From NCBI RefSeq assembly GCF_000015585.1, contig NC_008789.1, positions 690,001 through 722,000 on the forward strand: a DNA stretch of 32,000 nt, given 5' to 3'. Position numbers and translations under genes: made by a program. Position 1 is the stretch's first letter. Each line of letters begins with the position of its first letter. This stretch comes from Halorhodospira halophila SL1 (GTDB lineage Bacteria > Pseudomonadota > Gammaproteobacteria > Nitrococcales > Halorhodospiraceae). Below the pieces are notes generated by a model. It did no database searches. It saw nothing but the letters and a program-made list of their open reading frames with translations, and was not told the origin of the DNA. Shown piece by piece: positions 8,576 to 24,638 of the stretch.

Positions 8576-9365
8576 GGGCGGGCTCCTCCCGGCGCATGCG
8601 CTGCCAGCTGACGTAGTATTCCTCCGTGAGCGCCTGCAGGTGCCGATGAAGCTGGCTGGGCACGGGGCGCGCGAGCTGGAGCTCAAGGAACTCGACACGC
8701 CGGCGCTCAGTAAGCTCTGGGGGCTGATGGCGTCGCCACCGGACGAAGCGCAAGAGCAGGGGGATATAGAGGCAACGGCGCAGCTCGCCTTCTAGGTCTT
8801 CACCTTGGGCGGCGAGCGCGCGGCAGGCAGGTCGCCAGCCGCTGCGGTGCAGCTCCGCCTGTAGCCAGCTTTGCAACCCCCCGCCGAGCGCCGCGATCTC
8901 GTGCGGGATCCAGCGCAGCGGGCTGAGCTTGCGCAGGTAGTCCTCAAGCCGTCGGCAGGCGCTCTGGAAATCGCCGCGGGGACCGCGCCGGAAGACAAGG
9001 CTCCAGGCGTGGCGGCGCTGGGCGTCTCGCCACCAGTGGTAGGGGACGAGCCCGGTCTGTGTCTCAATCAGCGAGGTCAGCTCCTGGACGGGCCGATTCT
9101 GCGGCTCCTGGGCCGGCTGCAGGCAGGCCGTGGGCTGGCCGTGGCCGTCCTGAAAGTGGACGACAGCACCCGCCTCGACCAGGGCGAGGCAAGCCTGGAG
9201 GAGCCCCTCGCCGGCGCTGCCGCGCACGACGGCACGGCTAACCCGGGCGAGCGGGACGTACTCCGCGGCCTTGCCGGGGCGGCACAGGCGCAGCGCCGAG
9301 CCCTCGTACCGGACCTGGATCCGCTCGGCGTTGAGGTAGAGGGTACGCGGCTCGAGGCGGGGCAT
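8568..9365 (-). CDS. Short divergent Cas1-like protein (265 aa), catalytic motifs not evident
   Basis: The N-terminus parallels the Cas1 beta-domain: TLYLNAERIQV...VPLARVSRAVVRGSAGEGLLQACLALVEAGAVVHF vs Cas1 TLYIDRR...VPLSLIDRLIVIGQVELSSGVLTTLAESGVSLVF. The C-terminal half is helical but lacks the RNR..P.D..N..LS.GY and G..H motifs. An agggagg RBS is present. Confidence 0.55.
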   Translation of the reverse strand: MPRLEPRTLYLNAERIQVRYEGSALRLCRPGKAAEYVPLARVSRAVVRGSAGEGLLQACLALVEAGAVVHFQDGHGQPTACLQPAQEPQNRPVQELTSLIETQTGLVPYHWWRDAQRRHAWSLVFRRGPRGDFQSACRRLEDYLRKLSPLRWIPHEIAALGGGLQSWLQAELHRSGWRPACRALAAQGEDLEGELRRCLYIPLLLRFVRWRRHQPPELTERRRVEFLELQLARPVPSQLHRHLQALTEEYYVSWQRMRREEPAHG

Positions 9366-9378
9366 GATCGGGCCTCCC

Positions 9379-9660
9379 TTAGCCGAAGTAGAAGAAGTCT
9401 GGATCGGCGGGCACCTCGGCAGCGCCGAGGGTGACCAGGGGGCGGCGCGGCTCCAGCGGCAGGAGCGCGAACTGGTCCTCAGTGGGGTCGATGACCTGCG
9501 CCATTTCCGTGTGCAGCGCCTTGTGCTCGGCGGGGGTCAGCCAGCACTCATAGGCCGACTTCTGGCCGCCGCTGGCGTATCCCTTGATGACCCTTACGGC
9601 GCGGGATAGCCGGCGTGGGCAGCGAACATCGTAGGCGGCGAGGTAGAGTTTGCGGCGCAT
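9379..9660 (-). CDS. cas2: Second Cas2
   Basis: Reads MRRKLYLAAYDVRCPRRLSRAVRVIKGYASGGQKSAYECWLTPAEHKAL, the Cas2 ferredoxin-fold pattern. Confidence 0.8.
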   Translation of the reverse strand: MRRKLYLAAYDVRCPRRLSRAVRVIKGYASGGQKSAYECWLTPAEHKALHTEMAQVIDPTEDQFALLPLEPRRPLVTLGAAEVPADPDFFYFG

Positions 9661-9884: not shown

Positions 9885-11042
9885 TCAGCAGGGCTCCACG
9901 TGCGCCTTCCACTCCCGGACGATATCCCGCAGCCGGGGCAGCTCATCCGGGCCAATGAGTCGGATCCGATGCTGCCGGGCGCGCTCTCGCATAATATCCG
10001 TCGGCTGCCGGGCGCTGACCATCCAACTGGTACCGAAGAAGCCGCGCAGGTTATCGCCGATGCTGTCCAGCTTGTAGAGTTGCTGGTCATCGGCGGCTTC
10101 GTTGCCGTGGCGCAGGGTCTTGCACTCCACCACCAACAGACGATTGACATGGATGGCAACCACATCTAGTTCGTTGCGGGCCTTGTCGGTACCTTCCCAG
10201 GTGCCTTCCACCCCCATGGCCACATCGTCGAGCCCCTCATCCCGGAGCCGGTGGTAGACATACTCCTCCAGCCAGCCGCCGTTGAGAAAGCGAGTCCGCT
10301 CCTCGTCGAGGAAGGTCACCTCGGCACCACCCTCCCAGTCCAGCAAGCCCTGGTCGCGGAGCCAGCCCAGATTATTGGCCCAGCGGCCGTACGGTGGGTC
10401 ATCGAAGGCCTGGTCACGCGCGACCAGCCGCCCCTCCCTGTCCAGAGACCGGGAAGCGACCGCATTCAGCGCACCCAGGAAATCGCCATGGTCCCTGGCG
10501 ACCTCCGCTAGCCTCTTGGCCACCTGCTTGCGCTCGCCAGCCTCACGCTGCCAGTCCTCGTCCGCGGAGGCAGCACGGTGGTAGCGAAACCCCTGGGCGC
10601 GCAGGCTGATTGGCACGTCAAGCACCGAGGTCTGTGGCGTCGGCGCCTCGGCCCGTTCATTCCCCTCCGGCAAGTGCTCCAACCGGCCATGGGCGGTATC
10701 GGTGTAGATCCGGCGGTGTACACTATCCCGCAGCATCTCGAGAAACCCCAGAGCCATGAGCTTGTTGCCGCCCGTCAGATTGAGGACCACCTCGTCCGCC
10801 GCCGGCAACTCTTCCAAGATCCCCAGGGCGAATTCGTGCAACTGGGGCAGGTCGGCATCCGGGGCATTCTCGAAGGTCTGAACCGCAATACCGGCCTCTT
10901 CTTCCAGCTTGCGGAGCAACTGAGCCTGCCCGGCCATGGCCGGCGTAACAATGAGAGCCGCATGCTCCGGGCGCTCCATGAGCGCGGGTATCAGATTGCC
11001 GGCAAGCTGGGCAGACACCAGCTGGATGTGGAGTCGGGTCAT
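9885..11042 (-). CDS. can2: CARF + PD-(D/E)xK nuclease effector (Can2/Card1 type)
   Basis: N-terminal CARF with NLTGGNKLMA. C-terminal ELDVVAIHVNRLLVVECKT gives the D...ExK motif. An aaggag RBS lies before ATG 11042. Confidence 0.8.
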   Translation of the reverse strand: MTRLHIQLVSAQLAGNLIPALMERPEHAALIVTPAMAGQAQLLRKLEEEAGIAVQTFENAPDADLPQLHEFALGILEELPAADEVVLNLTGGNKLMALGFLEMLRDSVHRRIYTDTAHGRLEHLPEGNERAEAPTPQTSVLDVPISLRAQGFRYHRAASADEDWQREAGERKQVAKRLAEVARDHGDFLGALNAVASRSLDREGRLVARDQAFDDPPYGRWANNLGWLRDQGLLDWEGGAEVTFLDEERTRFLNGGWLEEYVYHRLRDEGLDDVAMGVEGTWEGTDKARNELDVVAIHVNRLLVVECKTLRHGNEAADDQQLYKLDSIGDNLRGFFGTSWMVSARQPTDIMRERARQHRIRLIGPDELPRLRDIVREWKAHVEPC

Positions 11043-11071
11043 GGGATTGGTCTCCTTCGAGTGATAGGGCA

Positions 11072-11383
11072 TCAGTTGCCCGGTTCCACTTCGCCCAGGC
11101 TCTCTACACGGTAGGCCTCGAGACGGGCGCCAGCGGCCTCCATGTCGTCGGCGGTTAGTTCTTGGCCGCGCAACTGCGGTGGGAGATCCAGCGACAGATG
11201 GAGATACCGCCCACCACGCTCGCATACAGCGGCCGCAAGATGCACGGGGAGCGTTCCGATCACCCTATCCCCAACCTCCAGCTCGGCCGGATTTAGATGA
11301 TCCACCTGCCGATCAACCGCCAGGCCCCGGCGCTGGGCCCATTCCACAGCCCCCGAGTGACGGGTCACGAACCAAGTCGTCAT
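11072..11383 (-). CDS. csx16: Csx16 (VVA1548-family CRISPR-associated protein), copy a
   Basis: 103 aa. Reads MTTWFVTRHSGAVEWAQRRG...GDRVIGTLPVHLAA...YLHLSLDLPPQLRGQELTADDM. About 55-60 percent identical to the copy at 23008-23310. Confidence 0.7.
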   Translation of the reverse strand: MTTWFVTRHSGAVEWAQRRGLAVDRQVDHLNPAELEVGDRVIGTLPVHLAAAVCERGGRYLHLSLDLPPQLRGQELTADDMEAAGARLEAYRVESLGEVEPGN

Positions 11384-11615
11384 GGTGGTGCTGTCTCCTT
11401 TTCCTTACCTTCCTTTGGGTCAGCCGGCCTCTTTACCTCGTTGGCAGCCGCCTCAGGGTGCCCGTCACGGTAGACCCTTTTCGGCGCCAGAGAGCGGCTT
11501 GCAAGCTTACGACCACCAGCTCCTCTGGCCCTGCAAACTTGCGGTTTGTAAGGTCAACCATGACACTAAGCTAGCCTTGCGGAGGATCGCTCGAAACGCA
11601 CACGGAGTGCTGCTC

Positions 11616-12749
11616 ATGACCGCCGACACCGACGCGCCTCATACCCTCCTCTGCGTCACCGGGCTGACGCCACAGGTGGTCACCGAGACGCTCTACGCCC
11701 TCGCGCAGGAGGGGGCACACGCCCTTCCGGATCGCATCGAGGTCATCACCACGACCGAGGGCCGGCGCCGCCTGGCGTTGACCCTGCTCGCCGAGCACGG
11801 CGGCCACGGCTACCTGGACCGACTTTGCGCCGACTACGGTATCGACCGCGGCGCCCTCGCCTTCGACGTGGACAGTATCCACGTTGTCGGCGGCGCCGAC
11901 GACGAGCCCCTCGCCGATATCGTCACTGAGGCGGACAACGCCGCGGCCGCCGACCGGATCCACGAGCGCATCCGCACCCTGACCGAGCAGCCCGGGCGGC
12001 TGCACGTCTCCCTCGCCGGGGGACGCAAGACCATGGGCTTCTACGCCGGTTACTCGCTCTCGCTCTACGGCCGGGGGCACGACCGGCTCAGCCACGTGCT
12101 GGTCAATCCGCCCTTCGAGTCGCACCCGGACTTCTTCTACCCACCACCGACGCCGGCAACCCTCCAGCTACCCGGGCGCAACGACATCATCAGCACCGCC
12201 GAGGCCGAGGTGCGTCTCGCCGAACTGCCTTTCGTCCGGCTGCGCGAGGAGCTCGGCGAGGAGCTGCCGCATCAGGGGCTATCCTTCAGCGAGGCGGTCG
12301 AGCGCGCCCAGCAGGTACTGATCCCGCCCCAATTGACCATCGATCTTACTGAGCGCACCGTCACGCTCCAGGGGCAGCCGATCACCCTCTCGGCAACCCA
12401 CTTCCTCTGGCTGACCTGGCTGGCCGACCGCGCTCGGCAAGAGGCCCCAGCGATCGCCTTCGACGAGGCCGCGGTTGATGAACTGACGGGCTACGCCGAC
12501 TGGCTTGAAGGTCGCCTCTCACAGCTGCATGAGAGCCTGGCCTCGGCGCGCAAGGAGATCGAGCGAGAAGGCCGCTCGAACTACTTCGAGCGCACCCGCT
12601 CGCGACTCAACAAGGCCATCGCCGAGCGCAGCGGCCTGCCCACCCGGGCGGCAGCGCGCTACCAGATCCACACCCACAGCAGCCGGCCCCAGACCACCTA
12701 CGGCCTGAAGCTCGAGCCGGAGCAGATTCGTATCGAGGGGGAGCCGTGA
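11616..12749 (+). CDS. CARF-domain protein, Cas_NE0113-like, with uncharacterised C-terminal domain
   Basis: Reads LLCVTGLTPQVVTETLYAL...HVSLAGGRKTMGFYAGY...HVLVNPPFE. The C-terminal 150 aa or so are helical with no recognisable nuclease motif. A ggag RBS lies before ATG 11616. Confidence 0.7.
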   Translation: MTADTDAPHTLLCVTGLTPQVVTETLYALAQEGAHALPDRIEVITTTEGRRRLALTLLAEHGGHGYLDRLCADYGIDRGALAFDVDSIHVVGGADDEPLADIVTEADNAAAADRIHERIRTLTEQPGRLHVSLAGGRKTMGFYAGYSLSLYGRGHDRLSHVLVNPPFESHPDFFYPPPTPATLQLPGRNDIISTAEAEVRLAELPFVRLREELGEELPHQGLSFSEAVERAQQVLIPPQLTIDLTERTVTLQGQPITLSATHFLWLTWLADRARQEAPAIAFDEAAVDELTGYADWLEGRLSQLHESLASARKEIEREGRSNYFERTRSRLNKAIAERSGLPTRAAARYQIHTHSSRPQTTYGLKLEPEQIRIEGEP

Positions 12750-12826
12750 GCCGGCAAGCTTGCAGGCATGCTGACCACGTTGATCGCCGGGCGATACTGC
12801 GGCCACGCAAGAGAGCGAAGAGCACC

Positions 12827-13816
12827 ATGGAGCAACGACACCTGACCCTGGAGCTGCTGACCCCGACCTTTCTCGGGGATGCTCAGCAGACCGCCGCCTG
12901 GCGGACGCCGCCAATCAAGGCGCAGCTGCGCCGCTGGTGGCGGGTCGCCGCGTTCGCGCAGGGGATGCGCCTACCCGAGCTACGCGCCCTGGAAGGACGG
13001 CTTTTCGGCGACGCCGCCGGGCAGCAGGGCCGCAAGAGCCAGGTTCGGCTGCGCCTACAGCCGCATAAGGGACGGCCGGGCACGCAGCACAACAACGCGT
13101 GGCGCCAGCAAGCCAATCAACAGCCGTTACGGATGAATAACGGCTTGCCGGCCGATGGCTACCTCGGTTTCGGCCGGGTCAAGACCAAAGGTGCTAACGA
13201 GACCGCCCTGCCACCCGAGGAGAAGGCCGAGCTGCGCCTGGCCTGGCCGGCGGAAGCCGAGGGCGCCGAGGCCCTCGACGAGGCCCTCGGGCTCTTCCAT
13301 CGGCTCGGCAGCCTCGGAGGACGCAGCCGCAACGGCTGGGGCGCCTGCCACCTGCACGGCGCCGAGGCCATTGGCCTGGACGCCTACAGCCGTCCCTGGG
13401 AAGAGGCCTTGGAAGAGGCCTGGATCCACGCCCTCGGCAGGGATGGAAACGGCCTGCTGCTGTGGTGGACCCCGCCGTGCAAGAGCTGGGAGGCCGCCAT
13501 GCGACGGCTCGGCGACCTGCGCAAGGGCCTGTGCGGCGAGGCGGGGGCGCTGCGGCCGCTGCTCTCCTGGCCGGTCACAGGCCAGCAGCAGCAGGGTCTC
13601 GACAACCAGAACCGGATCCCCAACACCCTGCAGCTTAAGGTTGTCCGGGACGAGCAGGGGCAGCTGCGGGGACAACTCGCGCACCTCCCCTGCCGACCCG
13701 AGCCGAAGATCTGGGATGCGCTACCCAAGGAGGTGCGCGACGACCATCCTGCGCTCTGGCGCAACGCCCACGCCTTCCTCGACCGGCACAGCGATCTCGA
13801 GCGGGTGCACGCATGA
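12827..13816 (+). CDS. cmr1: Cmr1 (RAMP)
   Basis: Reads LTLELLTPTFLGDA...PPIKAQLRRWWR. G-rich loop is GSLGGRSRNGWG. First gene of a cmr operon with overlapping stops and starts. Confidence 0.85.
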   Translation: MEQRHLTLELLTPTFLGDAQQTAAWRTPPIKAQLRRWWRVAAFAQGMRLPELRALEGRLFGDAAGQQGRKSQVRLRLQPHKGRPGTQHNNAWRQQANQQPLRMNNGLPADGYLGFGRVKTKGANETALPPEEKAELRLAWPAEAEGAEALDEALGLFHRLGSLGGRSRNGWGACHLHGAEAIGLDAYSRPWEEALEEAWIHALGRDGNGLLLWWTPPCKSWEAAMRRLGDLRKGLCGEAGALRPLLSWPVTGQQQQGLDNQNRIPNTLQLKVVRDEQGQLRGQLAHLPCRPEPKIWDALPKEVRDDHPALWRNAHAFLDRHSDLERVHA

Positions 13817-16746
13817 CGGAGGCAACCCTCATGGACATTGATCTGGCCCGGAACAAGCTGCTCGCCCGACTGCACGACCCGGCGGAGAAGGCGCTGGTCC
13901 TGCTGCGCGATCCCGCCGGCCACGAGGGGGGCACCGTGCGCACCCTCATCGAGGAGATCCTCGGCGAGGTGCCGCAGGCGGCCTGGGCGCCCGTGCGCAA
14001 GGCCGACCGCTGGGCCTCGGCGGCGGACCGGCCGCAATTCCCCCGTGAGCGCGACGGCGATCGCTTCGCGCGCTGGAGCCAGGTGCGCTTCGCCGAGCAG
14101 CCGGTGCTGCGCCATCCGCTCACCGGCGAGAAGATCGATCTCGGCGAGCACGGCAAGCTGCGGGAGATCGAGCTCGACACGCTCAAGGCCGGCAGCCTCG
14201 AGCATTTCCGGCACCTGATCCATCGTGACGAGGCGGGGAGCGTCGATTCCTGGCGGACCCTGCTCGCGCTGTGGCGCTTCGGCCCCGAGCCGGCAACGAG
14301 CGGCGATGCGACCGGGCTCGGCGAGCTGTGGCGCTATCTGCCGGCGGATACCCGCATCCCGGACCACACCATCTGGCAGCACCTGGACCTGAGCTCCGCG
14401 CTCACCGGCGCCTTCGCGGGCGATGGCCAGGGCCGCTGCGCCCTGCTCAACGTCACCCTCGGCCCGGTGCAGGAGCTGATCGCCGCCGCCCGGACGACCT
14501 CGGACCTATGGGCCGGCTCGCACCTGCTCGCCCGGCTCGCCTGGGAGGCGATGCGCGTCGTCTGCGAGCGCCTCGGCCCCGACGCCGTGCTCTTCCCGCA
14601 GCTGCGCGGCGTCCCGCAGGTCGACCTCTGGCTCCTCGAGCAGGGGCTGGCGCCGGAGCTCTTCGCGAAGGAGCCCTGGAACGAGCGCACCGTCACCGAC
14701 GCCAACCCGCTGTTCAGCGCCGCCCTGCCCAACCGCTTCCTCGCCGTGGTCCCGGCGGATCAGGCGGAGGCGATCGGCCGCGCCATCGAGGCGCACCTGC
14801 ACGAGTGGGTCGCCGAGACCGCCGAGGGCGTGGTCAGCGATCTGCTCAGGGCCGTCAACCTGCACACCGATCCGACAACACCCGCCTATCAGCAGGCACG
14901 GGAGCAGCTGGCCGGATTCCCTGAGGTCTACTGGTCGGCCGTGGGCTGGGACGAGATCGCCACGGACGCCAACGGCGAGCCCGAGGCGGACCGCCTCGCC
15001 GAGGCCCTGCGCCCCTTCTATGAGCCGCAGGCCGAGGCCCCCGGCTTCCTCAGCTCCGAGGCCTGGCGCGTACTACAGCGGCCCATCGAGGTCATCGATC
15101 CGGAAGCGGGGACGCCGGCGACCTTCTACCGGCCCAATCCCGGCGTGCTCTACCCCGCGCTCTACGAGCTCAGCGAGCGAGTGATGGGCGGCGTCAAGGC
15201 GACCCGCCCCTTCGCCGCGCAGCACGAGGGCGGCTATCGCTGCTCGCTGACCGGCGAGGTGGAGTGGCTGACCCACGATCGCAGCCACCTCGACCTGCCG
15301 CCGGGCCAGCGGGAAGGGCACGACACCCTCTGGAGCCTCGTTGCCAAGCGCCACCCGAGCTGGGCGCGCAAGGGTGAGCACCTCGGGGCGCTGGCCGCCC
15401 TCAAGCGGCTCTGGCCGCAGCGCTTCTGCCGCGAACTCGCCGGGACCCTCGGGCAGGAGCAGACGCCGCGCTTCGTCGTCTCCACGCACACCATGGCGCT
15501 GGCCACCTCCCTGGCCCGCGCTGCCGAGGAGCCGAATCCCGCCGGCGGGCTCAGCGCCGAGCAGGCCGAGGCGATCCGCAACGCCGATCGGGTTGCGCTA
15601 CCGCGGCGGCTGGCGCAGCGGCTACACCACCTCGAGCACGGTGAGCTCCTCGCCCGGTTGCCCGGCTGGGTCGAGCAGCAGCGCGAATCCGACGACGGCG
15701 ATGAGACCGCCGCCCGGCAGGCGATCCGCAAGGTCACCGGCACCGAGGCCGAGGCCTACTACGCCCTGCTGCTCATGGACGGCGACCGCATGGGGGCCTG
15801 GCTCTCCGGCGGCGACGGGACGACCATCCCCTACCGGGCGGCCTTCCACCCCGACCTGGCGGACGCAGTGGACACACGCTTCGGCGACCATACGGTCCTG
15901 CAGGCGTACCTCGACACGCCGCGGGCGGTCTCACCGGCCCGGCACCTGGCCATCTCCGGGGCGCTGAACGACTTCTCCACCACCCTCGCCCGCAGGGTGG
16001 TCGAGGAGTGTCACCACGGCCGCGTCCTCTATGCCGGCGGCGACGACCTCATGGCCATGCTGCCCACTGGCGATCTGCTCAGCGCCATGCGCGAGCTGCG
16101 CGACGCTTACTCGGGCACGGCTACCAGCGGTGAGGCCGAGGAAGAGGACGCCTGGTGCCGCAACGGCTTCATCTATCGGCAGGACCGGCTGTACCTGACC
16201 ATGGGGTCGCAGGCCACCGCCTCGATGGGGGCGGTGATCGCCCACCATAAGACCCCTCTGACCGCGGCCCTCGCTGAACTGCGCCAGGCCGAGCAGCGGG
16301 CCAAGAACGAGGGCGGGCGCGACGCCTTCGCCCTGTCCGTTCTCAAGCGCAGCGGCGGCGCCCTGCGCCACGTCGGCCGCTGGGCACCAGCAGCGGGTAT
16401 CGACGAGATGAGCGCCCTGCGCGACTTCGCCGAGGCGCTCCATGCCAACCCCGAGGCCTCCCGGCGCGCCGCCTACAACGTCGCGGGCTGGCTCGCCGAT
16501 CTCCCCGAGCCCGACACCCTCCCCCCGGAGGACGGCGTCGCCGGCTACCTCGAGGCGGTGCTGCACTACCAATTCTGCCGCCAGGGCCTCGAGCAGCAGG
16601 GGCAGCCCATCCACGCGCGGCGGCTCGGATCGCTCGCCAGCGTCTCGCCAACCGGCGACGAGCTGAGCAGCGCCGCCAAGATCCGCGACCGTCTCAGCCA
16701 CCTCGTCGGCGTGGCCGAGTTCCTCGCCCGCGAGACCCGGAGGTAG
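13813..16746 (+). CDS. cas10: Cas10/Cmr2 large subunit
   Basis: 977 aa. N-terminal LHDPAEKAL. Contains YYALLLMDGDRMGAWL and the cyclase motif LYAGGDDLMAML. ATGA overlap with cmr1. Confidence 0.92.
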   Translation: MTEATLMDIDLARNKLLARLHDPAEKALVLLRDPAGHEGGTVRTLIEEILGEVPQAAWAPVRKADRWASAADRPQFPRERDGDRFARWSQVRFAEQPVLRHPLTGEKIDLGEHGKLREIELDTLKAGSLEHFRHLIHRDEAGSVDSWRTLLALWRFGPEPATSGDATGLGELWRYLPADTRIPDHTIWQHLDLSSALTGAFAGDGQGRCALLNVTLGPVQELIAAARTTSDLWAGSHLLARLAWEAMRVVCERLGPDAVLFPQLRGVPQVDLWLLEQGLAPELFAKEPWNERTVTDANPLFSAALPNRFLAVVPADQAEAIGRAIEAHLHEWVAETAEGVVSDLLRAVNLHTDPTTPAYQQAREQLAGFPEVYWSAVGWDEIATDANGEPEADRLAEALRPFYEPQAEAPGFLSSEAWRVLQRPIEVIDPEAGTPATFYRPNPGVLYPALYELSERVMGGVKATRPFAAQHEGGYRCSLTGEVEWLTHDRSHLDLPPGQREGHDTLWSLVAKRHPSWARKGEHLGALAALKRLWPQRFCRELAGTLGQEQTPRFVVSTHTMALATSLARAAEEPNPAGGLSAEQAEAIRNADRVALPRRLAQRLHHLEHGELLARLPGWVEQQRESDDGDETAARQAIRKVTGTEAEAYYALLLMDGDRMGAWLSGGDGTTIPYRAAFHPDLADAVDTRFGDHTVLQAYLDTPRAVSPARHLAISGALNDFSTTLARRVVEECHHGRVLYAGGDDLMAMLPTGDLLSAMRELRDAYSGTATSGEAEEEDAWCRNGFIYRQDRLYLTMGSQATASMGAVIAHHKTPLTAALAELRQAEQRAKNEGGRDAFALSVLKRSGGALRHVGRWAPAAGIDEMSALRDFAEALHANPEASRRAAYNVAGWLADLPEPDTLPPEDGVAGYLEAVLHYQFCRQGLEQQGQPIHARRLGSLASVSPTGDELSSAAKIRDRLSHLVGVAEFLARETRR

Positions 16747-16749
16747 CCC

Positions 16750-17901
16750 ATGGCCGAGTACCGCTACATCGAGCCCCAGGACGTCCTCTTCTTCCGCGGC
16801 AACCGCCTCTTTGGCGAGCCCGGCAACGCCGGCGCCGCCCTCATGCCGCCCTGGCCCTCGGTCTTCGCCGGGGCCCTGCGCAGCGCCATGCTCAGCGCCG
16901 CCGGCGCGGACCCGGCGCAGCTGCGCAGCGGCGAGCTGCCTGCCCCGCTCGACACGGTGCTCGGCACCCCCGAGGAGCCGGGGACCTTCACCCTCACCGG
17001 CGTGACGCTGGCTCGCCGGCAGTCGTCCGGCACCGCCGAGCCCCTCCACCCCCTGCCGGCGGACCTGAGCGTCGAGCGTGATGAGGCCACAGGCGAGTGC
17101 GCGGTCCATCGCCTGACGCCGCAGCCACTGCCCGCCGGCGTCGCCAGCAGCCAACCCCTGGAGCGCCTGCCGGTGCTCCGGCGCAGCGACCGCGGTAAGC
17201 CGGCCGCCGGCTACTGGCTCACCCATAGCGGCTGGCAGCGCTACTGCCAGGGCGAGCCCCCACCGGCTGAGGCCCTCGTTCACCGCTCGGCGATCTGGAG
17301 CAGCGACCCGCGCCTGGGCATTGCCCTGAAGCCCGAGCAGCGCACGGCGGCCGAGAGCCAGCTCTACACCACCGAGGGCATCCGGCTGTGCGAGGGATAC
17401 GGCTTTCTCGCCGCCATCGCCGGCTCCGACCCGACCAGCCTGCCTAAGCAGGCAACCCTGCGCCTCGGCGGCGACGGCCGCGGCGCGTTCATGAGCGCCG
17501 TCGCAGCCCCGGTCGAAACCTCGCCGGAGCCGGCCGCCATCGAGGCAGAGGGCCGCCTACGGATCGTACTCACCACGCCCGGCATCTTCCCGGGGGGGTG
17601 GCAACTCCCCGGGCTCGACGCCAATGGCCTCTGGCACTATCCCGGCGGCCGGGCGCGGCTGGTCGCCGCTGCTGTGCCCCGCGGCCAGGTCATCAGCGGC
17701 TGGGATCTGGCTCACCACCGGCCCAAACCCGCCCAACGTGCGGCCCCAGCCGGGACCGTCTACTGGCTCGAGGCGCTTGAGGGCGGGCTCAAGCCGCTTC
17801 GCAAGCTTGCCGAATCCGGTCTCTGGGGCATGACCCCGGAGAATGAAGACCCAGCACGGCGAGCCGAGGGCTTCAACCGCTTCGCCATCGCCAACGCCTG
17901 A
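16750..17901 (+). CDS. cmr3: Cmr3
   Basis: Reads YRYIEPQDVLFFRGNRLFG...PPWPSVFAGALRSA. Its position after cas10 also fits. Confidence 0.85.
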   Translation: MAEYRYIEPQDVLFFRGNRLFGEPGNAGAALMPPWPSVFAGALRSAMLSAAGADPAQLRSGELPAPLDTVLGTPEEPGTFTLTGVTLARRQSSGTAEPLHPLPADLSVERDEATGECAVHRLTPQPLPAGVASSQPLERLPVLRRSDRGKPAAGYWLTHSGWQRYCQGEPPPAEALVHRSAIWSSDPRLGIALKPEQRTAAESQLYTTEGIRLCEGYGFLAAIAGSDPTSLPKQATLRLGGDGRGAFMSAVAAPVETSPEPAAIEAEGRLRIVLTTPGIFPGGWQLPGLDANGLWHYPGGRARLVAAAVPRGQVISGWDLAHHRPKPAQRAAPAGTVYWLEALEGGLKPLRKLAESGLWGMTPENEDPARRAEGFNRFAIANA

Positions 17902-17915
17902 AGGGATCGCAGACC

Positions 17916-18830
17916 ATGTTCGAGAAGAACGCCGCCCTATTCCTCTACAGCGTCAGCCCCGTCCACATGGGGGCTGGCACCGCGACCGGGGTGATCGACA
18001 ACCCCATCCAGCGCGAGGTGCACACGCAACACCCGAGCTTCGCCGGCTCCGGGCTCAAGGGCGCCATCCGCCACGGCTTCAAGGCCCTTGGCGGCAACCC
18101 CGACCAGGCCGATCAGCTCTTCGGCCCCCGCCAGGGCGATCTCCACGCCGGCGCCGTGAGCCTCGGGGACGCACAGCTCGTCGCCCTGCCGGTGCGCACC
18201 CGCCGGGAAGGCTACGCCTACGCCACCTCGCCATTGGCCCTCGCCCGGCTGCAGCGGCTGCTCCACCAGGCCGGCCTCCAGCCCGAGTGGACAGTGCCCA
18301 CGCTGCCCCAGGGCGAGGCGGCTCGCGCGCCGGCGGCCGTCACGCCCGAGGGGCTCGAGGCCCTCACCGCCGACGGCGGCCGGCTCCACTTGGAGGTCTT
18401 CGAGCTCGCCGCACAGGCCGAACCCGGCGTAGCCGCCATCGGGCAGTGGCTCGCCGAGCACGCCCTCAGCAAGGACCACGGCGAGTACTTCCGGAACAAG
18501 CTCGCGCGGGACCTAGTGATCCTCCCGGAGACCGAGCTCAACTACTTCAGCCGCAACGCCATGGTGGTCGAGCCCCACGTGCGCATCGATCCGAAAACCG
18601 GCACCGCCGATGGCAGTGGGCTGTTTTATACCGAGAACCTGCCGCCGGAGAGCCTGCTCGCCGCGCCGGTGATGGCCAGCGGCGACCGCAGCGGTGAGCG
18701 GGAGCTCGACAGTGCCGCTGTCATGGCGCAGCTCCATACCGCCCTCGACGGCAACACGCTGCAGATCGGCGGCGACGCCACCACCGGCCGGGGGCTGGTC
18801 ACGGCCCGACTCGTGGAGAAGGTATCATGA
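17916..18830 (+). CDS. cmr4: Cmr4 (backbone RAMP, target RNase subunit)
   Basis: Reads PVHMGAGTATGVIDNPIQREVHTQHPSFAGSGLKGAIRH. C-terminal G-rich loop is IGGDATTGRGLV. Confidence 0.9.
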   Translation: MFEKNAALFLYSVSPVHMGAGTATGVIDNPIQREVHTQHPSFAGSGLKGAIRHGFKALGGNPDQADQLFGPRQGDLHAGAVSLGDAQLVALPVRTRREGYAYATSPLALARLQRLLHQAGLQPEWTVPTLPQGEAARAPAAVTPEGLEALTADGGRLHLEVFELAAQAEPGVAAIGQWLAEHALSKDHGEYFRNKLARDLVILPETELNYFSRNAMVVEPHVRIDPKTGTADGSGLFYTENLPPESLLAAPVMASGDRSGERELDSAAVMAQLHTALDGNTLQIGGDATTGRGLVTARLVEKVS

Positions 18831-19216
18831 CAACGCCCATGACCCTCGAGCAGCAGCGCGCCGCCGATGCCTGGCAGGCTGCGGCGGCCTGCACGGACCC
18901 CTACGCCAAGCTCGCCAAGGGGGCGCCGGCGCTAATTATGAACAGCGGTCTGATGCAGACCCTGGCTTTCCTTGAAGACAAGGGCGAGGACCACCACCGA
19001 GCCCTCGCTCGACAGCTGCGGCGGTGGATTGTGCGGCAGCACCCGGAGCTGCTAAGCACCCGCGGCGATAGCGCGGACCCGGGCTATGAGGCAATCATGG
19101 AGGCGCTGCTCCACGCCGAGCCGCGCACCTTCCAGGCCGTGACCGCGGAGGCCCTCGCCTGGCTGCGCTGGGTCCGCCAGATCGCGCCCACTCGCGTCGA
19201 GGAGCGTTCGTCATGA
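18827..19216 (+). CDS. cmr5: Cmr5 (small subunit)
   Basis: 129 aa and helical. Reads APALIMNSGLMQTLAFLEDKG. Overlaps both neighbouring genes. Confidence 0.8.
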   Translation: MTTPMTLEQQRAADAWQAAAACTDPYAKLAKGAPALIMNSGLMQTLAFLEDKGEDHHRALARQLRRWIVRQHPELLSTRGDSADPGYEAIMEALLHAEPRTFQAVTAEALAWLRWVRQIAPTRVEERSS

Positions 19217-20424
19217 GCCGCGCCGCCGTTCCCGCCTACCTCGGTGAGGACTTCCGGGAGGCCGCTCCGGGCCACCGCTTTGCGCTCTATCTCAGCGTCT
19301 GGGATCAGCAATGGAAGAAGCAGCGGGGCGGTGCGATCGAGGAGCTGCTGAAGCTGAACGACGACGATCGGAAGCGGCTGGGCGCTTTGATCGAGCGCCA
19401 ACGCCGGCTACTCCAGCATGAGGAGAGCGCACAACCAGGGAGCACCCTGAACCTGCCGGCCACGAGCACGAGCCCCTTCACAACAGGGCTCGGCATGGCC
19501 CACCCGCTGGAGAACGGCTTCGCTTTTCTCACCCCCTACGGCCTGCCTTACCTCGCGGGAAGCGGCGTCAAGGGTGTCCTGCGCCAGGCGGCGCGGGAGC
19601 TCGCCGAGGGGGGTGAGTTCGAGGATCCCGGGCGCGATTGGGACTGGCCCGAGATCGAGGCACTTTTCGGGAGCCCCGGCGAGGACGAAGGCGGCGTGAC
19701 AGGCCGGCGCCGAGGCGCCCTAAACTTCTGGGACGTCTTCCCCGAACCAGGGCGAGGGCAAGACCTGGCCTGGGAGGTCATGACACCCCATCAGGGCAGC
19801 TACTACCAGGACGCTACCGGCCAAACCGCACCGCACGATAACGGCGCGCCCGTGCCGATCTACTTCCTCGGTATCCCGGCCGGCAGCGGTTTCCGCTTTC
19901 ATATCCAGTGCAATCGGGCCCTGTTACGGCAGACGGGACCGACACTGCTTGAGCCAGCGGGCGAGGACGGCGATCGAGCACGCTGGCAGGTTCTGCTCGA
20001 AACCCTCTTCGCGCACGCCTTCGAGTGGCTCGGCTTCGGCGCCAAGACGGCGGTCGGCTACGGCGCGCTGTCCATCGACGAGAAGACCCGGCGGCACGAG
20101 GCCGAGGCGCGCGAAAAGATCCGGGCCGAACAGGCACGCAAGGAACAGCTTGCGAGCTTGCCGCCCGGGCAGCGTCGCGCGGAAGAGCTGCTTGAGCAGC
20201 GCCAAGACCCCAGCTATCCGGCGCACCGCTTCTTGCTCGAACAGCTCGAAGCCGGTGCAGTAGCCGCCGAGGAGCAAGCGGCCCTGGCGCAGGTTGCGCT
20301 CGACTACCTCGCGCAAGACCGTGAAAAGGTTCGTAAGACGAAGAAAGCCAAGCAGAAGCTGCCGAAACTGGACGAGGAAGAGGTGCAACTTCAGCGCTTC
20401 GTCGACGAGGAAGGCACAGGGTGA
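19213..20424 (+). CDS. cmr6: Cmr6 (RAMP) with about 117-aa charged C-terminal extension
   Basis: Reads PYLAGSGVKGVLRQAAREL. G-rich loop is GFGAKTAVGYGAL. This is followed by a K/E/R/Q-rich helical tail. Confidence 0.85.
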   Translation: MSRAAVPAYLGEDFREAAPGHRFALYLSVWDQQWKKQRGGAIEELLKLNDDDRKRLGALIERQRRLLQHEESAQPGSTLNLPATSTSPFTTGLGMAHPLENGFAFLTPYGLPYLAGSGVKGVLRQAARELAEGGEFEDPGRDWDWPEIEALFGSPGEDEGGVTGRRRGALNFWDVFPEPGRGQDLAWEVMTPHQGSYYQDATGQTAPHDNGAPVPIYFLGIPAGSGFRFHIQCNRALLRQTGPTLLEPAGEDGDRARWQVLLETLFAHAFEWLGFGAKTAVGYGALSIDEKTRRHEAEAREKIRAEQARKEQLASLPPGQRRAEELLEQRQDPSYPAHRFLLEQLEAGAVAAEEQAALAQVALDYLAQDREKVRKTKKAKQKLPKLDEEEVQLQRFVDEEGTG

Positions 20425-21335
20425 TTCGACTCCATCCGCTGCAGCTGACCTTCGAGGCGCAGGATGCGCTGGTGCTGCCGGCGCAGCCGGGGACCTTGTG
20501 GCGTAGCGCCATCGGGGCGCGGCTGCGAGCCGACGCCTGCATCACCGGCGCCTCGCAGTGCCGCGGGTGCCGGGTCGCCGAGCGCTGCGCCTACGCGCAG
20601 CTCTTCGAGCCGCCGCGCCGGCATGCCGGCCTCGCCCCGCGCTTTCGCGATCCACCTCGCCCCTGGGTGATCGCCCCTGGCCCCGGCGGGCAGCGGGTGG
20701 CCCCCGGCGAGCACCTCGAGCTCGGTCTCACCCTCATGGCCGATGGCCTGGCGTACTGGCCCTCCCTCTATCGAGCCCTTCAGCGGCTGCGGCTCGGGCC
20801 TGCCCCGCTGAGGCTGGTTCGTGCCGTCAGCCACCCGCCCCAGGGCGAGCCGGCCCCGGCGCCAGCCAAGCCGCTGCCGGGCTATCGGCCCGAGCCGCCC
20901 GCGCCGCCGCCGGAGGGCTCAGTCCAGATCACCCTCGACAGCCCCCTTCGGTTGCAGCGCAACGGCCGCCCGCTCACAGCCGAGGCATTTTCCCCCGAAC
21001 CGCTGATCGCCGCGCTATTGCGCCGGATCACGAGCCTCGATGAAACGGCGCCCGAGGTCGACCATGGTGCGCTAACCCGTCATGCGCAAGAGGCCGTGGC
21101 CCTGCGTGATCCGGTGTTGCGCTGGTACGACGCCGATCGATCCTCGAGCCGCCAGGGCCGGCGCGTACCGCTCGGCGGGTTGGTCGGGCACTTCCGTCTT
21201 GAAGGCGCGCTCGCCCCCATCTGGCCGTGGCTTTGGACAGGGCAGTGGGTTCATGCCGGGAAAAGCGCCGTCATGGGCCTTGGGCGGTTTCGCTTGGTCG
21301 AAAGTGAGGAGCGAGGCGGTGTACTTGGGATCTAG
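20421..21335 (+). CDS. cas6: Cas6-type crRNA endoribonuclease (DUF2276/COG5551-like)
   Basis: GTG start overlapping the cmr6 stop. N-terminal Cys cluster is CITGASQCRGCRVAERC. C-terminal G-rich loop is HAGKSAVMGLGRF. Confidence 0.7.
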   Translation: MIRLHPLQLTFEAQDALVLPAQPGTLWRSAIGARLRADACITGASQCRGCRVAERCAYAQLFEPPRRHAGLAPRFRDPPRPWVIAPGPGGQRVAPGEHLELGLTLMADGLAYWPSLYRALQRLRLGPAPLRLVRAVSHPPQGEPAPAPAKPLPGYRPEPPAPPPEGSVQITLDSPLRLQRNGRPLTAEAFSPEPLIAALLRRITSLDETAPEVDHGALTRHAQEAVALRDPVLRWYDADRSSSRQGRRVPLGGLVGHFRLEGALAPIWPWLWTGQWVHAGKSAVMGLGRFRLVESEERGGVLGI

Positions 21336-21399
21336 TCCTGCGCACCCCGTTTGCCCGGGACACCTGCCCCCGGGGCACAGTTGGGGGCGGTTTCAGGGC

Positions 21400-21565
21400 T
21401 AGCCAGCCCGCTAACCCTGCAGTACCATCGCCTCTATGGGCCTATATGCTCTTTCACAATAGGATTTGGATGCAGATGCAACTGCATATTAACTACTCAG
21501 GCGCGGGAAAACTCGCTAACCCCCTTTGCAACCTGCTGATTACAAAGTACTTTTGGGGTCGAGGA
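21400..21565 (+). promoter_or_regulatory. CRISPR leader of mini-array 3
   Basis: Lower-GC region. Blocks aataggat, ggatgc, taaccccctt and tggggtcgagga match the reverse complements of leaders 1 and 2. Confidence 0.6.
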
Positions 21566-21671
21566 GTCTGAGACGAGCCCTGCTTGAAAAGGGATTAAGA
21601 CAAGGTCTTGATGTGACCCATGGTGGCCACATCCTGTCTGAGACGAGCCCTGCTTGAAAAGGGATTAAGAC
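21566..21671 (+). CRISPR. CRISPR mini-array 3: 2 repeats, 1 spacer (34 nt), variant repeat
   Basis: GTCTGAGACGAGCCCTGCTTGAAAAGGGATTAAGAC occurs at 21566-21601 and 21636-21671. It differs at 6 of 36 positions from the array 1/2 repeat and keeps the same 3' half. Confidence 0.85.
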
Positions 21672-21883
21672 CGCTCCTGGACGGCCACCCCGAACCGGAC
21701 CATGGATCCCGACTCGATACCGAGCTGCTCTGCTTCCTCAGGCGCCAGCTCCAATGCGGCATCCACCGGCTCGGGCGGACGATACTGACCACGCCCGGGC
21801 GTCATGCGCTCGAGGGCGATAACCTCACCGTCGGCGATCCGGGCTATCGTCAGCGGAGCAGCCGTATTATCCAGGCCTGGCAC
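21665..21883 (-). pseudogene. DUF192-like gene fragment (C-terminal half only)
   Basis: Positions about 21685-21874 are roughly 93 percent identical to 25978-26171. The encoded APLTIARIADGEVIALERMTPGRGQYRPPEPVDAALELAPEEAEQLGIESGSMV has no N-terminal part. Confidence 0.7.
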
Positions 21884-21898
21884 AGCTGGGCCCGGGCT

Positions 21899-22080
21899 GC
21901 CGGCTGGAGCCGTTCAAGGGCCTGGCTCTGACGCTCAAGGCGGACTGGCAGGGCATCCTCAACGCCTTCGACTCGCGCATGTCCAACGGTCAGATCCAGG
22001 TCACCAAGGGCCACGCTCGAGGTTTCCGCACCACCAAGAACCTGATCACGAAGCGGCGGATGGCCGTAGAACAGGCCATC
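21899..22080 (+). pseudogene. Possible transposase C-terminal remnant (ISL3-like)
   Basis: In-frame peptide LKADWQGILNAFDSRMSNGQIQVTKGHARGFRTTKNLIT resembles the W..IlN.f....sNG..EG.N..iK...R.a.GfR tail of ISL3-type transposases. There is no upstream catalytic part. Confidence 0.3.
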
Positions 22081-22132
22081 AAAGCCCTTTGGCATCCGCC
22101 CGGTTGGCTCGATAGGCCCGCCGAGACGAGTG

Positions 22133-23011
22133 TTAACGGTCTTCGTGATCGTATTCGATATCGATCACGCTGATGCGAGCACCAACGGCCTTGTCGACGC
22201 GCACATACTGGCAGCGCCGCCCTTGAGCCTGCGTGAATAAGGCAGCAGCCACCGAGGCCTTCTTGGTCCCCCCGGTGATGTCCACAAGAACATCTCTCTC
22301 CCGTAGCCGGAGCCCCCGTGTTTTGATCAGACCGTTCCAGACCGATTCGATCGCCCGCCAGACCGCGCTGACGTCCTCAAAATCGCAGCCGTGTGCCATT
22401 TCGGTTGAGTGCGTATCCAGACCCTCGACCGTCACCTGCCGATCCGCCCCGTCAAGGAGGCTTTCGACGAGCTGCCGAAATACCGGAAACTGCTTGCACG
22501 ATCCATGGGTCCCGGAGGAGTAGATGACCACGACGCGCTCGAGCTTGGGCAAGTGGGCGCGGATGGCCTCCAGAGGCATCCTCCAGTTGCTCAGCGCATC
22601 GTTCACCAGCCCGAGGTCCGTAGAGCTATTCAACGGACGCACTCCCCCCTTCGCGAGGTCGTTGACCAAGTTGTTAGGGTTCGGGTGAGCGCTCAACAGA
22701 AGGATCAGTACCCGGCGCGGTTGCGGGTTCTCCTCGTCGGTCGCGTGCATAGACGGCGGGATTTCATGGTAAATCAGATAGATCCAAACCCCGATTAATA
22801 CCAGTACCGCAGCGATAAGGGCCGCCGTGTATCCCCACTGGTCGGCGAGAAAGCCCCCCCCATCTTCCAGGAGCCGCAAGAGCCCACTCGACAGGGTGTC
22901 GATGGATAGCAGCACAAGCAGAACAACGACCAGCGCCTTGCCGGTTCGAAATCCCAGTCGGCGGCAGGTGCGAATCAGCTCACGCCCAAGATCTCCGGGT
23001 ACCCTTTTCAT
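22133..23011 (-). CDS. Membrane-anchored CARF protein (two predicted TM helices + CARF), Cam1-like
   Basis: Hydrophobic segments are ALVVVLLVLLSIDTLSSGLLRLL and YTAALIAAVLVLIGVWIYLIY. The C-terminal Rossmann-like domain reads RVLILLLS...VVVIYSSGTHGS...VLVDITGGTKKASVAAAL. ATGA overlap with csx16b. Confidence 0.7.
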   Translation of the reverse strand: MKRVPGDLGRELIRTCRRLGFRTGKALVVVLLVLLSIDTLSSGLLRLLEDGGGFLADQWGYTAALIAAVLVLIGVWIYLIYHEIPPSMHATDEENPQPRRVLILLLSAHPNPNNLVNDLAKGGVRPLNSSTDLGLVNDALSNWRMPLEAIRAHLPKLERVVVIYSSGTHGSCKQFPVFRQLVESLLDGADRQVTVEGLDTHSTEMAHGCDFEDVSAVWRAIESVWNGLIKTRGLRLRERDVLVDITGGTKKASVAAALFTQAQGRRCQYVRVDKAVGARISVIDIEYDHEDR

Positions 23012-23310
23012 CTGTCAGCCTTGACCTGCTGCACGTGATAATACGCGAGTCGGGCATCCATGCCGTCCATCTCATCGGCACTGAGCTCTCGGCCCCGGCG
23101 CTCCGGAGGGATATCCAGAATCAAGTGGCAATACCACGCGCCACGGCAACAGACCCCTTCGGCAAGGTGCACGGGGAGTGTACCGATCACTGTATCGCCG
23201 GCTGCGACCTGCTCGACATCCAGGTGCTCGACCTGCCGATCGACATCGAATCCCTGCCGCTTAGCCCACTCTGTAGCCCCGGGATGACGGGATACGAACC
23301 ATACTGTCAT
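23008..23310 (-). CDS. csx16: Csx16 (VVA1548 family), copy b
   Basis: Reads MTVWFVSRHPGATEWAKRQG...GDTVIGTLPVHLAE...YCHLILDIPPERRGRELSADEM. Confidence 0.7.
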   Translation of the reverse strand: MTVWFVSRHPGATEWAKRQGFDVDRQVEHLDVEQVAAGDTVIGTLPVHLAEGVCCRGAWYCHLILDIPPERRGRELSADEMDGMDARLAYYHVQQVKADR

Positions 23311-23544: not shown

Positions 23545-24075
23545 ATGAAGCGTTACCTGCCGAGTGTTCTGCTAACCGGTGTCGTGCTTAGCTCTGGTGC
23601 AGCCAATGCGGCGCCGGCCCCGTTCGGTCTCGAGATCGGTGCTTCCTGCGATTCCGCGACGCAGTACAACGCGCAGTCGCAGGGCGTATCTGCTATCACC
23701 GACGGACCTGTCTACGAGATCGGCGGCAACCAGATTGACTTCGAAGGGCTGCAGTCCGTGACGGTGATCTGCGATGAGCAAACGAACGTAGCCGCCGTGG
23801 TTGCCGATTTTCAAAAGCGCTTCGGGGGGGCGACCTTTAATCGGCTTGTCGACATGTTGCGAGATGAGTATCGGCTTGTCGAGATGAACGACGCGCATGT
23901 CGGGGATCAGAATGCACGGTTCCAGGCTGATGAAGTCCATATCCTTGTTGAAGAGCCCCACATGAGCCGAACCACCTCACTCGTCTACAAGACGGAGGCG
24001 TTCAGCGATGCGTTTGCCGCTTACCAGCAACAGCAACAACGCCGGCAACAGGAGAAGGAAGCAGGTCAACTCTAA
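23545..24075 (+). CDS. Hypothetical secreted protein
   Basis: Signal peptide MKRYLPSVLLTGVVLSSGAANA|AP. A ggaggg RBS is present. Q-rich C-terminus (QQQQQRRQQEKE). Local GC is lower. Confidence 0.55.
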   Translation: MKRYLPSVLLTGVVLSSGAANAAPAPFGLEIGASCDSATQYNAQSQGVSAITDGPVYEIGGNQIDFEGLQSVTVICDEQTNVAAVVADFQKRFGGATFNRLVDMLRDEYRLVEMNDAHVGDQNARFQADEVHILVEEPHMSRTTSLVYKTEAFSDAFAAYQQQQQRRQQEKEAGQL

Positions 24076-24110: not shown

Positions 24111-24638
24111 ATGTGGAACTGGCTACGTGAATGGTTTCTCCAAGTGGGCGCGGGCCACGCCAGGGAAGACACGGACGGTGGCACCGACACGAATGAAAGG
24201 ATGATCAACCCGGCTACGGGCTTGCCCATGGTTGGCTCCGTGGACACGGAAGGGAACCCCTACGGAACAGCCCCCCCGTCGAGCGGACAAGAGGACATAC
24301 CTACGAACGAGTACCCGTCGAGCCACGCAGGCGGGGGAACACCCTGCGAGATGGGCTTTGAGGAGTCAATGGGCGACTCGGGTCCGGTTGACGATCCCCA
24401 CACGCCGCGAATCAACCCGGCCACTGGGCTTCCCATGACTGGATCGCTCGATACCGCAGGCAATCCTTACGGCACTGATACAAGCACTGGGCCCGAGCAT
24501 GGGCATACGGGACTAGCTGACGATGGCACCCCATCTCCATTCAATGATGATATCGATCATAGCCGGCTGTCTGGCGGGTTTTCCGGCCTGGACGACGACT
24601 GGGGCGTTGGCGGATCCTCCAGCCCCTTCGATGACTAA
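24111..24638 (+). CDS. Hypothetical acidic G/P/D-rich protein with duplicated INPATGLPM-GS-DT-GNPYGT motif
   Basis: Two motif copies occur: MINPATGLPMVGSVDTEGNPYGT and RINPATGLPMTGSLDTAGNPYGT. A gggagggggg RBS region lies before the ATG. Confidence 0.5.
   Translation: MWNWLREWFLQVGAGHAREDTDGGTDTNERMINPATGLPMVGSVDTEGNPYGTAPPSSGQEDIPTNEYPSSHAGGGTPCEMGFEESMGDSGPVDDPHTPRINPATGLPMTGSLDTAGNPYGTDTSTGPEHGHTGLADDGTPSPFNDDIDHSRLSGGFSGLDDDWGVGGSSSPFDD

Follow-up and report, generated by a model that had tools for sequence, protein, structure and literature searches.

Co-occurring effectors activated by cyclic tetra-adenylate (cA4) are common in type III CRISPR-Cas loci, and three effectors together are rare: a 2024 survey reports three loci that combine Csx1, Can1-2 and Cam1, transcription factors and ring nucleases being set aside (PMC11229360). 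Among the characterised effectors, Card1/Can2 and Cam1 are cA4-activated, and Cam1 binds cA4 and depolarises the membrane (PMC10808066). One member of the Csx16 family has been shown to act as an off switch, a ring nuclease that degrades cA4 specifically. In genomes, ring nucleases are found only with effectors that cA4 activates, most commonly with Can1-2 (66% of loci) and Cam1 (81%), and more than one ring nuclease is found in ~4% of ring-nuclease-positive loci (PMC12409355). Here we analysed a 32,000-nt stretch of the Halorhodospira halophila SL1 chromosome (NC_008789.1, positions 690,001 to 722,000 of the forward strand; hereafter the window, in whose own coordinates all positions are given). 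An earlier model-generated reading of the same letters, the original prediction, had placed here a complete cmr operon wired to three CARF proteins and two csx16 genes. We consider it likely that the locus is a complete type III-B (Cmr) system which signals through cyclic oligoadenylate (cOA), most probably cA4, to three CARF proteins of different clades.

Real genes were distinguished from the many spurious open reading frames (ORFs) by third-position G+C content and profile searches; identities were assigned with Pfam, NCBIfam and PADLOC, and CARF clades carry the names used in the PADLOC profiles. G+C content ranges from 60 to 73% across the window. On the forward strand, NE0113, cmr1, cas10, cmr3, cmr4, cmr5, cmr6 and cas6 follow one another from 11616 to 21335 (Table 1). 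Since most neighbouring genes overlap by 4 nt or sit a few bases apart, with a largest gap of 14 nt (cmr3/cmr4), we regard this series as one operon, and the predicted cmr1-to-cas6 part of it was recovered in full by the three profile collections at the predicted coordinates. The type III-B assignment rests on a Cmr2-type Cas10 together with Cmr1, Cmr3, Cmr4, Cmr5 and Cmr6, all six of which are present in the canonical order. Five of the six Cmr proteins pass their NCBIfam cut-offs; the exception is Cmr1, for which the ATG at 12827 may be the real start. Cmr4 holds an aspartate within GVIDNPIQRE, which we take to be the location of the catalytic aspartate in characterised Cmr4.

Residues 739-750 of Cas10 read LYAGGDDLMAML, and the predicted GGDD, at residues 742-745, aligns with the GGDD of the nearest solved Cmr2 (PDB 9L7C; E 5e-50). 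The second Palm domain keeps the cyclase motif expected of an active enzyme. Near the N-terminus, an HD dipeptide at residues 21-22 ('LHDPAEK') aligns with 'FHDPPDK' of the same structure, and Cas10 therefore probably contains an HD nuclease domain.

The first of the three CARF proteins is the 385-residue can2 product, encoded on the reverse strand. Both halves of the CARF and PD-(D/E)xK architecture predicted for it were recovered, with Pfam Card1_endonuc matching over positions 1-136 of 136 (8.5e-63), CARF_Card1 scoring 26.9 bits (cut-off 24.6), and PADLOC CARF4--CARF_PDDEXK matching at 7e-96. The protein also matches solved Can2 (7BDV, 1.4e-22), VC1899 (1XMX) and Card1, and its D...ExK nuclease motif ('NELDVV...VIECKT') is conserved relative to 7BDV and 1XMX. 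In architecture, length, motif and significant sequence match it is thus like Can2/Card1 (PDB 7BDV, 6WXW) and VC1899 (1XMX), characterised members of which vary in substrate preference, cleaving DNA, RNA or both. An upstream-extended ORF of 446 residues was rejected, as it overlaps csx16a and the homologues have 385 residues.

The second effector, a 292-residue CARF protein of clade CARF8 with two transmembrane (TM) helices, is encoded to the right of the cmr operon. It matches the PADLOC profile 'CARF, 2 TMs' (4.7e-43) in addition to CARF8--CARF_TM, the family to which it clearly belongs, has no Pfam match, and gave nothing significant in a direct sequence search against the PDB; its best PDB profile match was Cam1 (E 0.0027). 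HMMER, run in full against 1.84 billion representatives, recovered 2357 relatives, mostly of 270-310 residues. The motifs WRMPLEA and DITGGTK are conserved. In its AlphaFold (AF2) model, with a predicted local distance difference test score (pLDDT) of 91, helices spanning residues 24-50 and 59-81 precede the CARF fold and coincide with two hydrophobic segments, in line with the two predicted TM helices. The N-terminus is basic and the loop between the two helices is acidic, which suggests that both termini are cytoplasmic. The top Foldseek matches were cA4- and cA6-bound Cam1, with the cA4-bound structure 8T65 first (E 1.5e-5, template-modelling score 0.61). Cam1 from Nitrosococcus halophilus (PDB 8T64-8T66) likewise consists of an N-terminal membrane anchor and a C-terminal cytoplasmic CARF domain, but it has one TM helix and 206 residues, and shares ~14% identity with the window protein.

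The third CARF protein, of 377 residues, is encoded just upstream of cmr1, where an NE0113-like protein had been predicted. It passes the NCBIfam family model TIGR02584 at 222.6 bits (cut-off 80.65) and matches PADLOC CARF5--CARF (7e-114) over positions 3-350 of 351. At E <= 1e-5 we found 4073 homologues of uniform length (366-390 residues); an upstream-extended ORF of 455 residues was rejected, the homologues having about 377 residues. The shorter starts preferred in the original prediction for both can2 and NE0113 are therefore right. An AF2 model of the NE0113 protein, built from 42 homologues, is confident (pLDDT 94). Residues ~1-215 are a CARF domain of clade CARF5, and residues ~235-377 are a probable winged helix of the OmpR/PhoB-like kind, interrupted by a helical insertion. 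The CARF fold is nearest to that of the Cad1 deaminase (template-modelling scores 0.69-0.71), followed by Crn1 ring nucleases and TtCsm6. All three CARF proteins were thus assigned to CARF families in the profile searches, and they are three clades of one superfamily, not the unrelated proteins that they had been called.

Scanning the C-terminal domain of NE0113 with Pfam gave no consistent family, and a direct sequence search of the whole protein against the PDB gave nothing significant. When a profile of residues 222-377, built from 20 family members, was searched against PDB sequences, the top match was the RstA DNA-binding domain (E 4e-4), and OmpR/PhoB-family effector domains made up 16 of the 18 matches after it; matches of this kind were weaker in other profile searches. 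The alignment consists of two collinear segments, one comprising the N-terminal beta-sheet and helix 1 and the other the end of the recognition helix and the wing. The predicted order of elements, three short strands, a helix, inserted helices, a helix and a terminal hairpin, fits OmpR/PhoB, and BaeR was among the matches in a fold search with the whole model. We conclude that this is a probable OmpR/PhoB-type winged-helix DNA-binding domain; given the resemblance, NE0113 probably acts as a transcription factor gated by cOA. NE0113 proteins were earlier predicted to be transcription regulators, with which the OmpR-like assignment agrees (PMC4012209); we found no experimental paper on the family in the literature searched.

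A functional parallel is Csa3, an archaeal transcription factor (PDB 2WTE, 6WXQ) in which a CARF sensor is fused to a winged-helix DNA-binding domain, as is probable for NE0113, and which two reports describe as binding cA4 and regulating CRISPR genes (PMC8844856, PMC8699464). The CARF clades differ, NE0113 matching CARF5 profiles and having a Cad1-like fold, and Csa3 ranked only 47-50 in the NE0113 fold search (E ~1e-2). The C-terminal domains differ as well, that of Csa3 being MarR-like and that of NE0113 OmpR/PhoB-like with a helical insertion. Searches of the locus with Pfam, NCBIfam and PADLOC returned no match to a Csa3 profile, so that NE0113 is not of the Csa3 family and the resemblance is one of function, not of family membership.

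Both predicted csx16 genes encode proteins that match their family profile over the full length (4e-41 to 2.5e-50), a likeness that they share with the characterised Csx16 (Cas_VVA1548; PMC12409355); a direct sequence search of Csx16 against the PDB gave nothing significant. Each gene lies directly upstream of one effector gene, csx16a of can2 and csx16b of the TM-CARF gene, an arrangement that differs from usual Csx16 loci in having two diverged copies, each attached to its own effector. The two are 58% identical in the tblastn search that located the second copy, csx16a is nearer to Thioalkalivibrio Csx16 (70-73%) than to csx16b, and csx16b is 75% identical to the copy in Halorhodospira halochloris. 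Because each copy is nearer to an orthologue elsewhere, the pair did not arise by recent duplication; the two genes probably came with their partner genes, as separate ring-nuclease and effector cassettes. Pairing of ring nuclease and effector is a known theme, since PADLOC holds profiles of natural Csx16 fusions (CARF8--CARF_CSX16_TM and CARF2--CARF_HEPN_CSX16). Taken together, the specificity of Csx16, the reported co-occurrence of ring nucleases with cA4-activated effectors, and the activation of Can2 and Cam1 by cA4 indicate that the messenger of the H. halophila Cmr system is most probably cA4.

From the observed gene identities, motifs, folds and gene order, and from their recurrence in other genomes, we infer the identity of the messenger, the activation of each effector, and DNA binding by NE0113 together with its targets. 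In the mechanism that we propose, CRISPR RNAs (crRNAs) from three arrays that share the tag ATTAAGAC would be processed by Cas6 and guide the Cmr complex to foreign transcripts, where Cmr4 would cut the target RNA and the GGDD-bearing Palm domain of Cas10 would make cA4. Three CARF proteins, each from another clade, would then respond to the messenger: the Can2/Card1-type PD-(D/E)xK nuclease would degrade nucleic acids, the two-TM Cam1-like protein would depolarise or otherwise perturb the membrane, and the NE0113 protein, through its probable winged helix, would alter transcription, its likeliest targets being the NE0113-cmr operon, to which its gene belongs, and the csx16a-can2 operon that diverges from it. 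The two Csx16 ring nucleases, each upstream of one effector, would cleave cA4 and reset the system. In compact form, this locus of a sequenced halophile would illustrate how one type III sensor can control nuclease, membrane and, probably, regulatory proteins and bring its own off switches.

This layout lends itself to a more specific, tentative proposal, to which we give somewhat less than even weight. NE0113 may be a cA4-gated OmpR/PhoB-like regulator, encoded at the head of the cmr operon, that switches on or releases its own operon and csx16-can2 upon infection. The private ring nuclease of each toxic effector, gained with it as a cassette, would damp that output independently of the other. 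If true, this would be a bacterial type III transcriptional feedback loop analogous to archaeal Csa3. On the reverse strand, divergent from the cmr operon, lie csx16a, can2, cas2', a cas1-like gene, cas2, cas1, a helix-turn-helix (HTH) gene, a leader and array 1, and csx16b and the TM-CARF gene run from the right, convergent with the cmr operon. The candidate control region is the divergent intergenic region between csx16a and NE0113, within which a short palindrome, GCTTGCAAGC, occurs at 11497. A recurrent short palindrome containing CAAGCTTG (11497, 23464 and 6905) was considered and rejected, being too weak to call as a regulator site. Scans for promoters and terminators gave counts at chance level, except for one promoter-like site in leader 2.

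Several observations weigh against the mechanism as a whole or against parts of it. A search for 9-mers shared among the divergent promoter regions and leaders yielded only the short palindrome named above, and no regulator binding site was found. Pfam Trans_reg_C detects one of the 20 NE0113 family members (E 0.024), so that the OmpR-like assignment is borderline by sequence, and because this detection is unreliable we grade the assignment as probable and not as proven; the C-terminal domain also contains a helical insertion of ~55 residues. To ascribe a Cam1-like pore mechanism to the TM-CARF protein is to extrapolate, since it has two TM helices and only 14% identity to Cam1. The arrays are short, one of them with an internal duplication, and 10 unique spacers compared with phage and plasmid collections (blastn in a 'distant' mode) matched no protospacer. 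Finally, the island is rich in insertion sequence (IS) elements, and activity in vivo is therefore not assured.

A different role for NE0113, that of a third off switch, would make the locus one of two effectors and three ring nucleases, with the protein acting mainly as a cA4-degrading CARF ring nuclease. The name of TIGR02584, 'CRISPR-associated ring nuclease Csm6' (NCBIfam, NCBI), points this way, as does that of one UniRef homologue, called a Crn1-type ring nuclease. The CARF domain resembles the ring nucleases Sso2081 and Sis0455 as well as Cad1, whose CARF domain is reported to be a ring nuclease (bioRxiv 10.1101/2024.12.12.628194), and the invariant NE0113 motifs GLTPQ...T and SLAGGRKT resemble the TGGRK motif of Crn1. 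However, a ring nuclease would not need an OmpR/PhoB-like C-terminus of 140 residues, kept across more than 4000 homologues, and two Csx16 are already encoded at a locus of a kind in which more than one ring nuclease is found in only ~4% of positive cases. We therefore hold this reading doubtful, while noting that the two roles are compatible, Csa3-like regulators and self-limiting effectors both being known. As for the messenger, the three CARF proteins might not have one in common: Cas10 would make several cOA species, different CARF clades would respond to different ones (e.g. cA4 and cA6), and the outputs would be graded or separate. In vitro, type III complexes do yield various cOA species (PMC11229360), and both the CARF5-clade Cad1 enzymes and the Can2-family Cdn1 respond to cA4 and cA6 (PMC12825302). 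In the genome survey, however, co-occurring effectors nearly always share their activator and mixed signals almost never occur (PMC11229360), and both ring nucleases of the window belong to the cA4-specific Csx16 family, so that we regard several messengers as improbable.

The locus could also be a decaying mosaic on an immobilised island, to which csx16b and the TM-CARF gene were added later and in which they may be non-functional or serve another type III system of the genome, so that the wiring would be illusory. The C-terminal remnant of an ISL3 transposase (DDE_Tnp_ISL3, 7.2e-8; ~21898-22053 on the forward strand), lying between mini-array 3 and the TM-CARF gene, marks the seam at which the csx16b-TM-CARF cassette adjoins the cmr module. 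G+C content drops from ~0.70-0.73 in the cmr genes to ~0.60 around this cassette, and csx16b, the TM-CARF gene and two small neighbours form a block common to H. halochloris, where it stands beside quite different cmr genes (Cas10 of 610 residues). These three observations argue for a separate origin of the cassette, and decay would also fit the truncation of one integrase copy of the island by IS elements, the nesting of IS elements, and the short arrays, one with duplicated spacers. On the other hand, none of the cas and accessory reading frames is disrupted and their profile matches are full-length, codon-position G+C at the locus is as usual for expressed genes, and several genera have kept these genes together, a sign of selection for the combination. 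Decay is thus very improbable as an account of the locus, and we prefer the reading as a functional three-CARF system. The ORFs at 21620-21931 and 21804-22115, next to the seam, were rejected as genes, since the first overlaps mini-array 3 and the ISL3 remnant lies in another frame.

Recurrence was assessed in 14 loci that encode TM-CARF relatives, by tblastn comparison with the proteins of the window. NE0113 is present in nine of them, csx16 in six and can2 in four. The closest in content is the III-B locus of Marichromatium gracile DSM 203 (NZ_SMDC01000005.1), which likewise has the three CARF families and csx16. It differs in that its effectors form a single co-directional operon (cas6-NE0113-cmr1-cas10-cmr3-6-csx16-TM-CARF-can2-cas2-cas1), whereas those of the window lie in divergent and convergent cassettes; in having one csx16 instead of two; and in its Cas10 of 622 residues, which lacks the N-terminal region of ~200 residues bearing the HD dipeptide. 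Protein identities between the two loci are 28-58%. The Cas10 proteins of H. halochloris (610 residues) and M. gracile are much shorter than the 977 residues of the window protein, so that the same accessory genes occur together with more than one variant of Cmr2.

The original prediction had suggested that this combination might not have been described, and that one sensor drives nuclease, membrane and possibly regulatory outputs. The second idea agrees with the family assignments and the OmpR/PhoB-like C-terminus of NE0113, but the claim of novelty does not stand. The families are catalogued, the combination recurs in Chromatiales, where M. gracile has the same CARF set with csx16, and the supplementary table of the 2024 survey contains the window locus as GCF_000015585.1_0, type III-B, with a 385-residue DUF1887 protein (PMC11229360). 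The locus leaves current understanding as it was, since loci with several cA4 effectors, the pairing of ring nucleases with effectors and each of the protein families had been described before. What remains slightly unusual is the presence of two diverged csx16 genes and of a third, probably regulatory CARF protein. The practical value of the locus is as a test bed, in which the abundant NE0113 CARF-winged-helix and two-TM CARF8 families stand beside the well-understood Can2 and Csx16.

Table 1. Features of the type III-B locus in the window
Feature	Coordinates	Strand	Basis or remarks
CRISPR array 1	5980-6726	-	11 repeats including a degenerate low-coordinate terminal one, 10 spacers
Leader of array 1	6727-6949	-	homologous to leaders of arrays 2 and 3
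Small HTH_3/HTH_31 gene	6950-7186	-	between cas1 and leader
cas1	7188-8150	-	Cas_Cas1 1.1e-69
cas2	8261-8575	-	CRISPR_Cas2 4.5e-15; start taken as the Met preceding the Cas2 domain
Diverged second cas1-like gene	8568-9365	-	PADLOC 'Cas1, diverged variant, second in the loci', E 4.4e-4 (weak match)
cas2' (second cas2)	9379-9660	-	CRISPR_Cas2 6.4e-11
can2 (Can2/Card1-type effector, 385 aa)	9885-11042	-	CARF (clade CARF4) and PD-(D/E)xK nuclease
csx16a (ring nuclease, 103 aa)	11072-11383	-	Cas_VVA1548 4.2e-41; 29 nt upstream of can2
Divergent intergenic region, csx16a-can2 / NE0113-cmr	11384-11615		candidate control region
NE0113-family gene (377 aa)	11616-12749	+	Cas_NE0113 3.6e-67; just upstream of cmr1
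cmr1	12746-13816	+	Pfam RAMP and position; TIGR01894 19.3 bits, below cut-off 28.65
cas10/cmr2 (977 aa)	13813-16746	+	Cmr2_N 1.5e-31, palm2 2.1e-27, TIGR02577 219 bits
cmr3	16750-17901	+	profile match 6.9e-103
cmr4	17916-18830	+	TIGR02580 180 bits
cmr5	18827-19216	+	Pfam and NCBIfam
cmr6	19213-20424	+	Pfam and NCBIfam
cas6	20421-21335	+	PADLOC 1.6e-76
Leader and mini-array 3	21490-21671	+	two variant repeats GTCTGAGACGAGCCCTGCTTGAAAAGGGATTAAGAC, one spacer; directly downstream of cas6
Two-TM CARF effector (clade CARF8, Cam1-like, 292 aa)	22133-23011	-	PADLOC CARF8--CARF_TM 2.5e-124
csx16b (ring nuclease, 100 aa)	23008-23310	-	Cas_VVA1548 5.4e-41; stop overlaps TM-CARF start by 4 nt
CRISPR array 2 and leader	24987-25400	-	array ~24987-25237; 3 perfect and 1 degenerate repeat

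Three CRISPR arrays and a set of adaptation genes also belong to the type III-B locus, beyond what the original prediction had listed. The repeat of array 1, as transcribed, is GTCCGAACCTAGCCCTGTTGGAAAAGGGATTAAGAC. An exact tandem duplication of 212 nt (5985-6408) doubles three repeat-spacer units of this array, so that seven of its ten spacers are unique. All three arrays have homologous leaders and, in the direction of transcription, the same 8-nt 3' repeat end, ATTAAGAC, which resembles the usual type III crRNA tag. Two adaptation pairs lie side by side, the normal cas1-cas2 and the cas1-like gene with the second cas2, the Cas1 similarity of the former member of the latter pair being weak and confined to the N-terminus. 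Extra cas2 copies were also observed in two of the related loci (L008 and L012).

The CRISPR-Cas segment is flanked by a direct repeat of 557 bp, 98.7% identical (431-987 = 31363-31919), which comprises the 3' half of a tRNA-Lys gene (405-480) and the 3' terminus of a gene for a tyrosine integrase. Of the two integrase copies, the left one is cut short by IS elements and the right one runs beyond the window. These flanking repeats and integrase ends define a tRNA-Lys island, as predicted; at ~31 kb, it is not the small one that had been proposed, and it is probably one of two related islands in tandem at tRNA-Lys. Its left part is a nested IS region (1018-5926), in which an IS3-family transposase gene (1018-1395 and 3978-4888) is split by an IS21 element (istA 1438-3015, istB 3111-3932) and followed by a second IS3-family element (4911-5926). 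The ends of the IS21 element seem to be the tandem 23/46-nt repeats found at 1413-1534 and 3966-4067.

Two small genes on the forward strand, 23545-24075 and 24111-24638, diverge from csx16b. The first encodes a 176-residue protein with an N-terminal segment like a signal peptide, and the second a 175-residue protein rich in Gly, Asp and Pro, in which an internal repeat, INPATGLPM...GNPYGT, occurs twice. The 176-residue protein has six homologues in a large protein collection, and its gene lies beside csx16 and/or TM-CARF in all five neighbourhoods examined (the window and the related loci L001, from H. halochloris, L002, L017 and L018). Its hosts are Halorhodospira-like sequences and Thioalkalivibrio; counterparts of the small genes lie at 8397-9459 of L001 and 8357-8896 of L002. 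We considered this secreted neighbour as a hidden accessory and rejected it, as there are only six homologues and the most distant stands in an unrelated context. The right part of the island (25471-31240, reverse strand) encodes a ParA-like ATPase (30419-31240), DUF2857 (28244-29083), IstB/DnaA-like ATPase (26482-27255), DUF192 (25691-26410) and HTH (25471-26049) proteins, a set of genes that we take to be typical of integrative elements.

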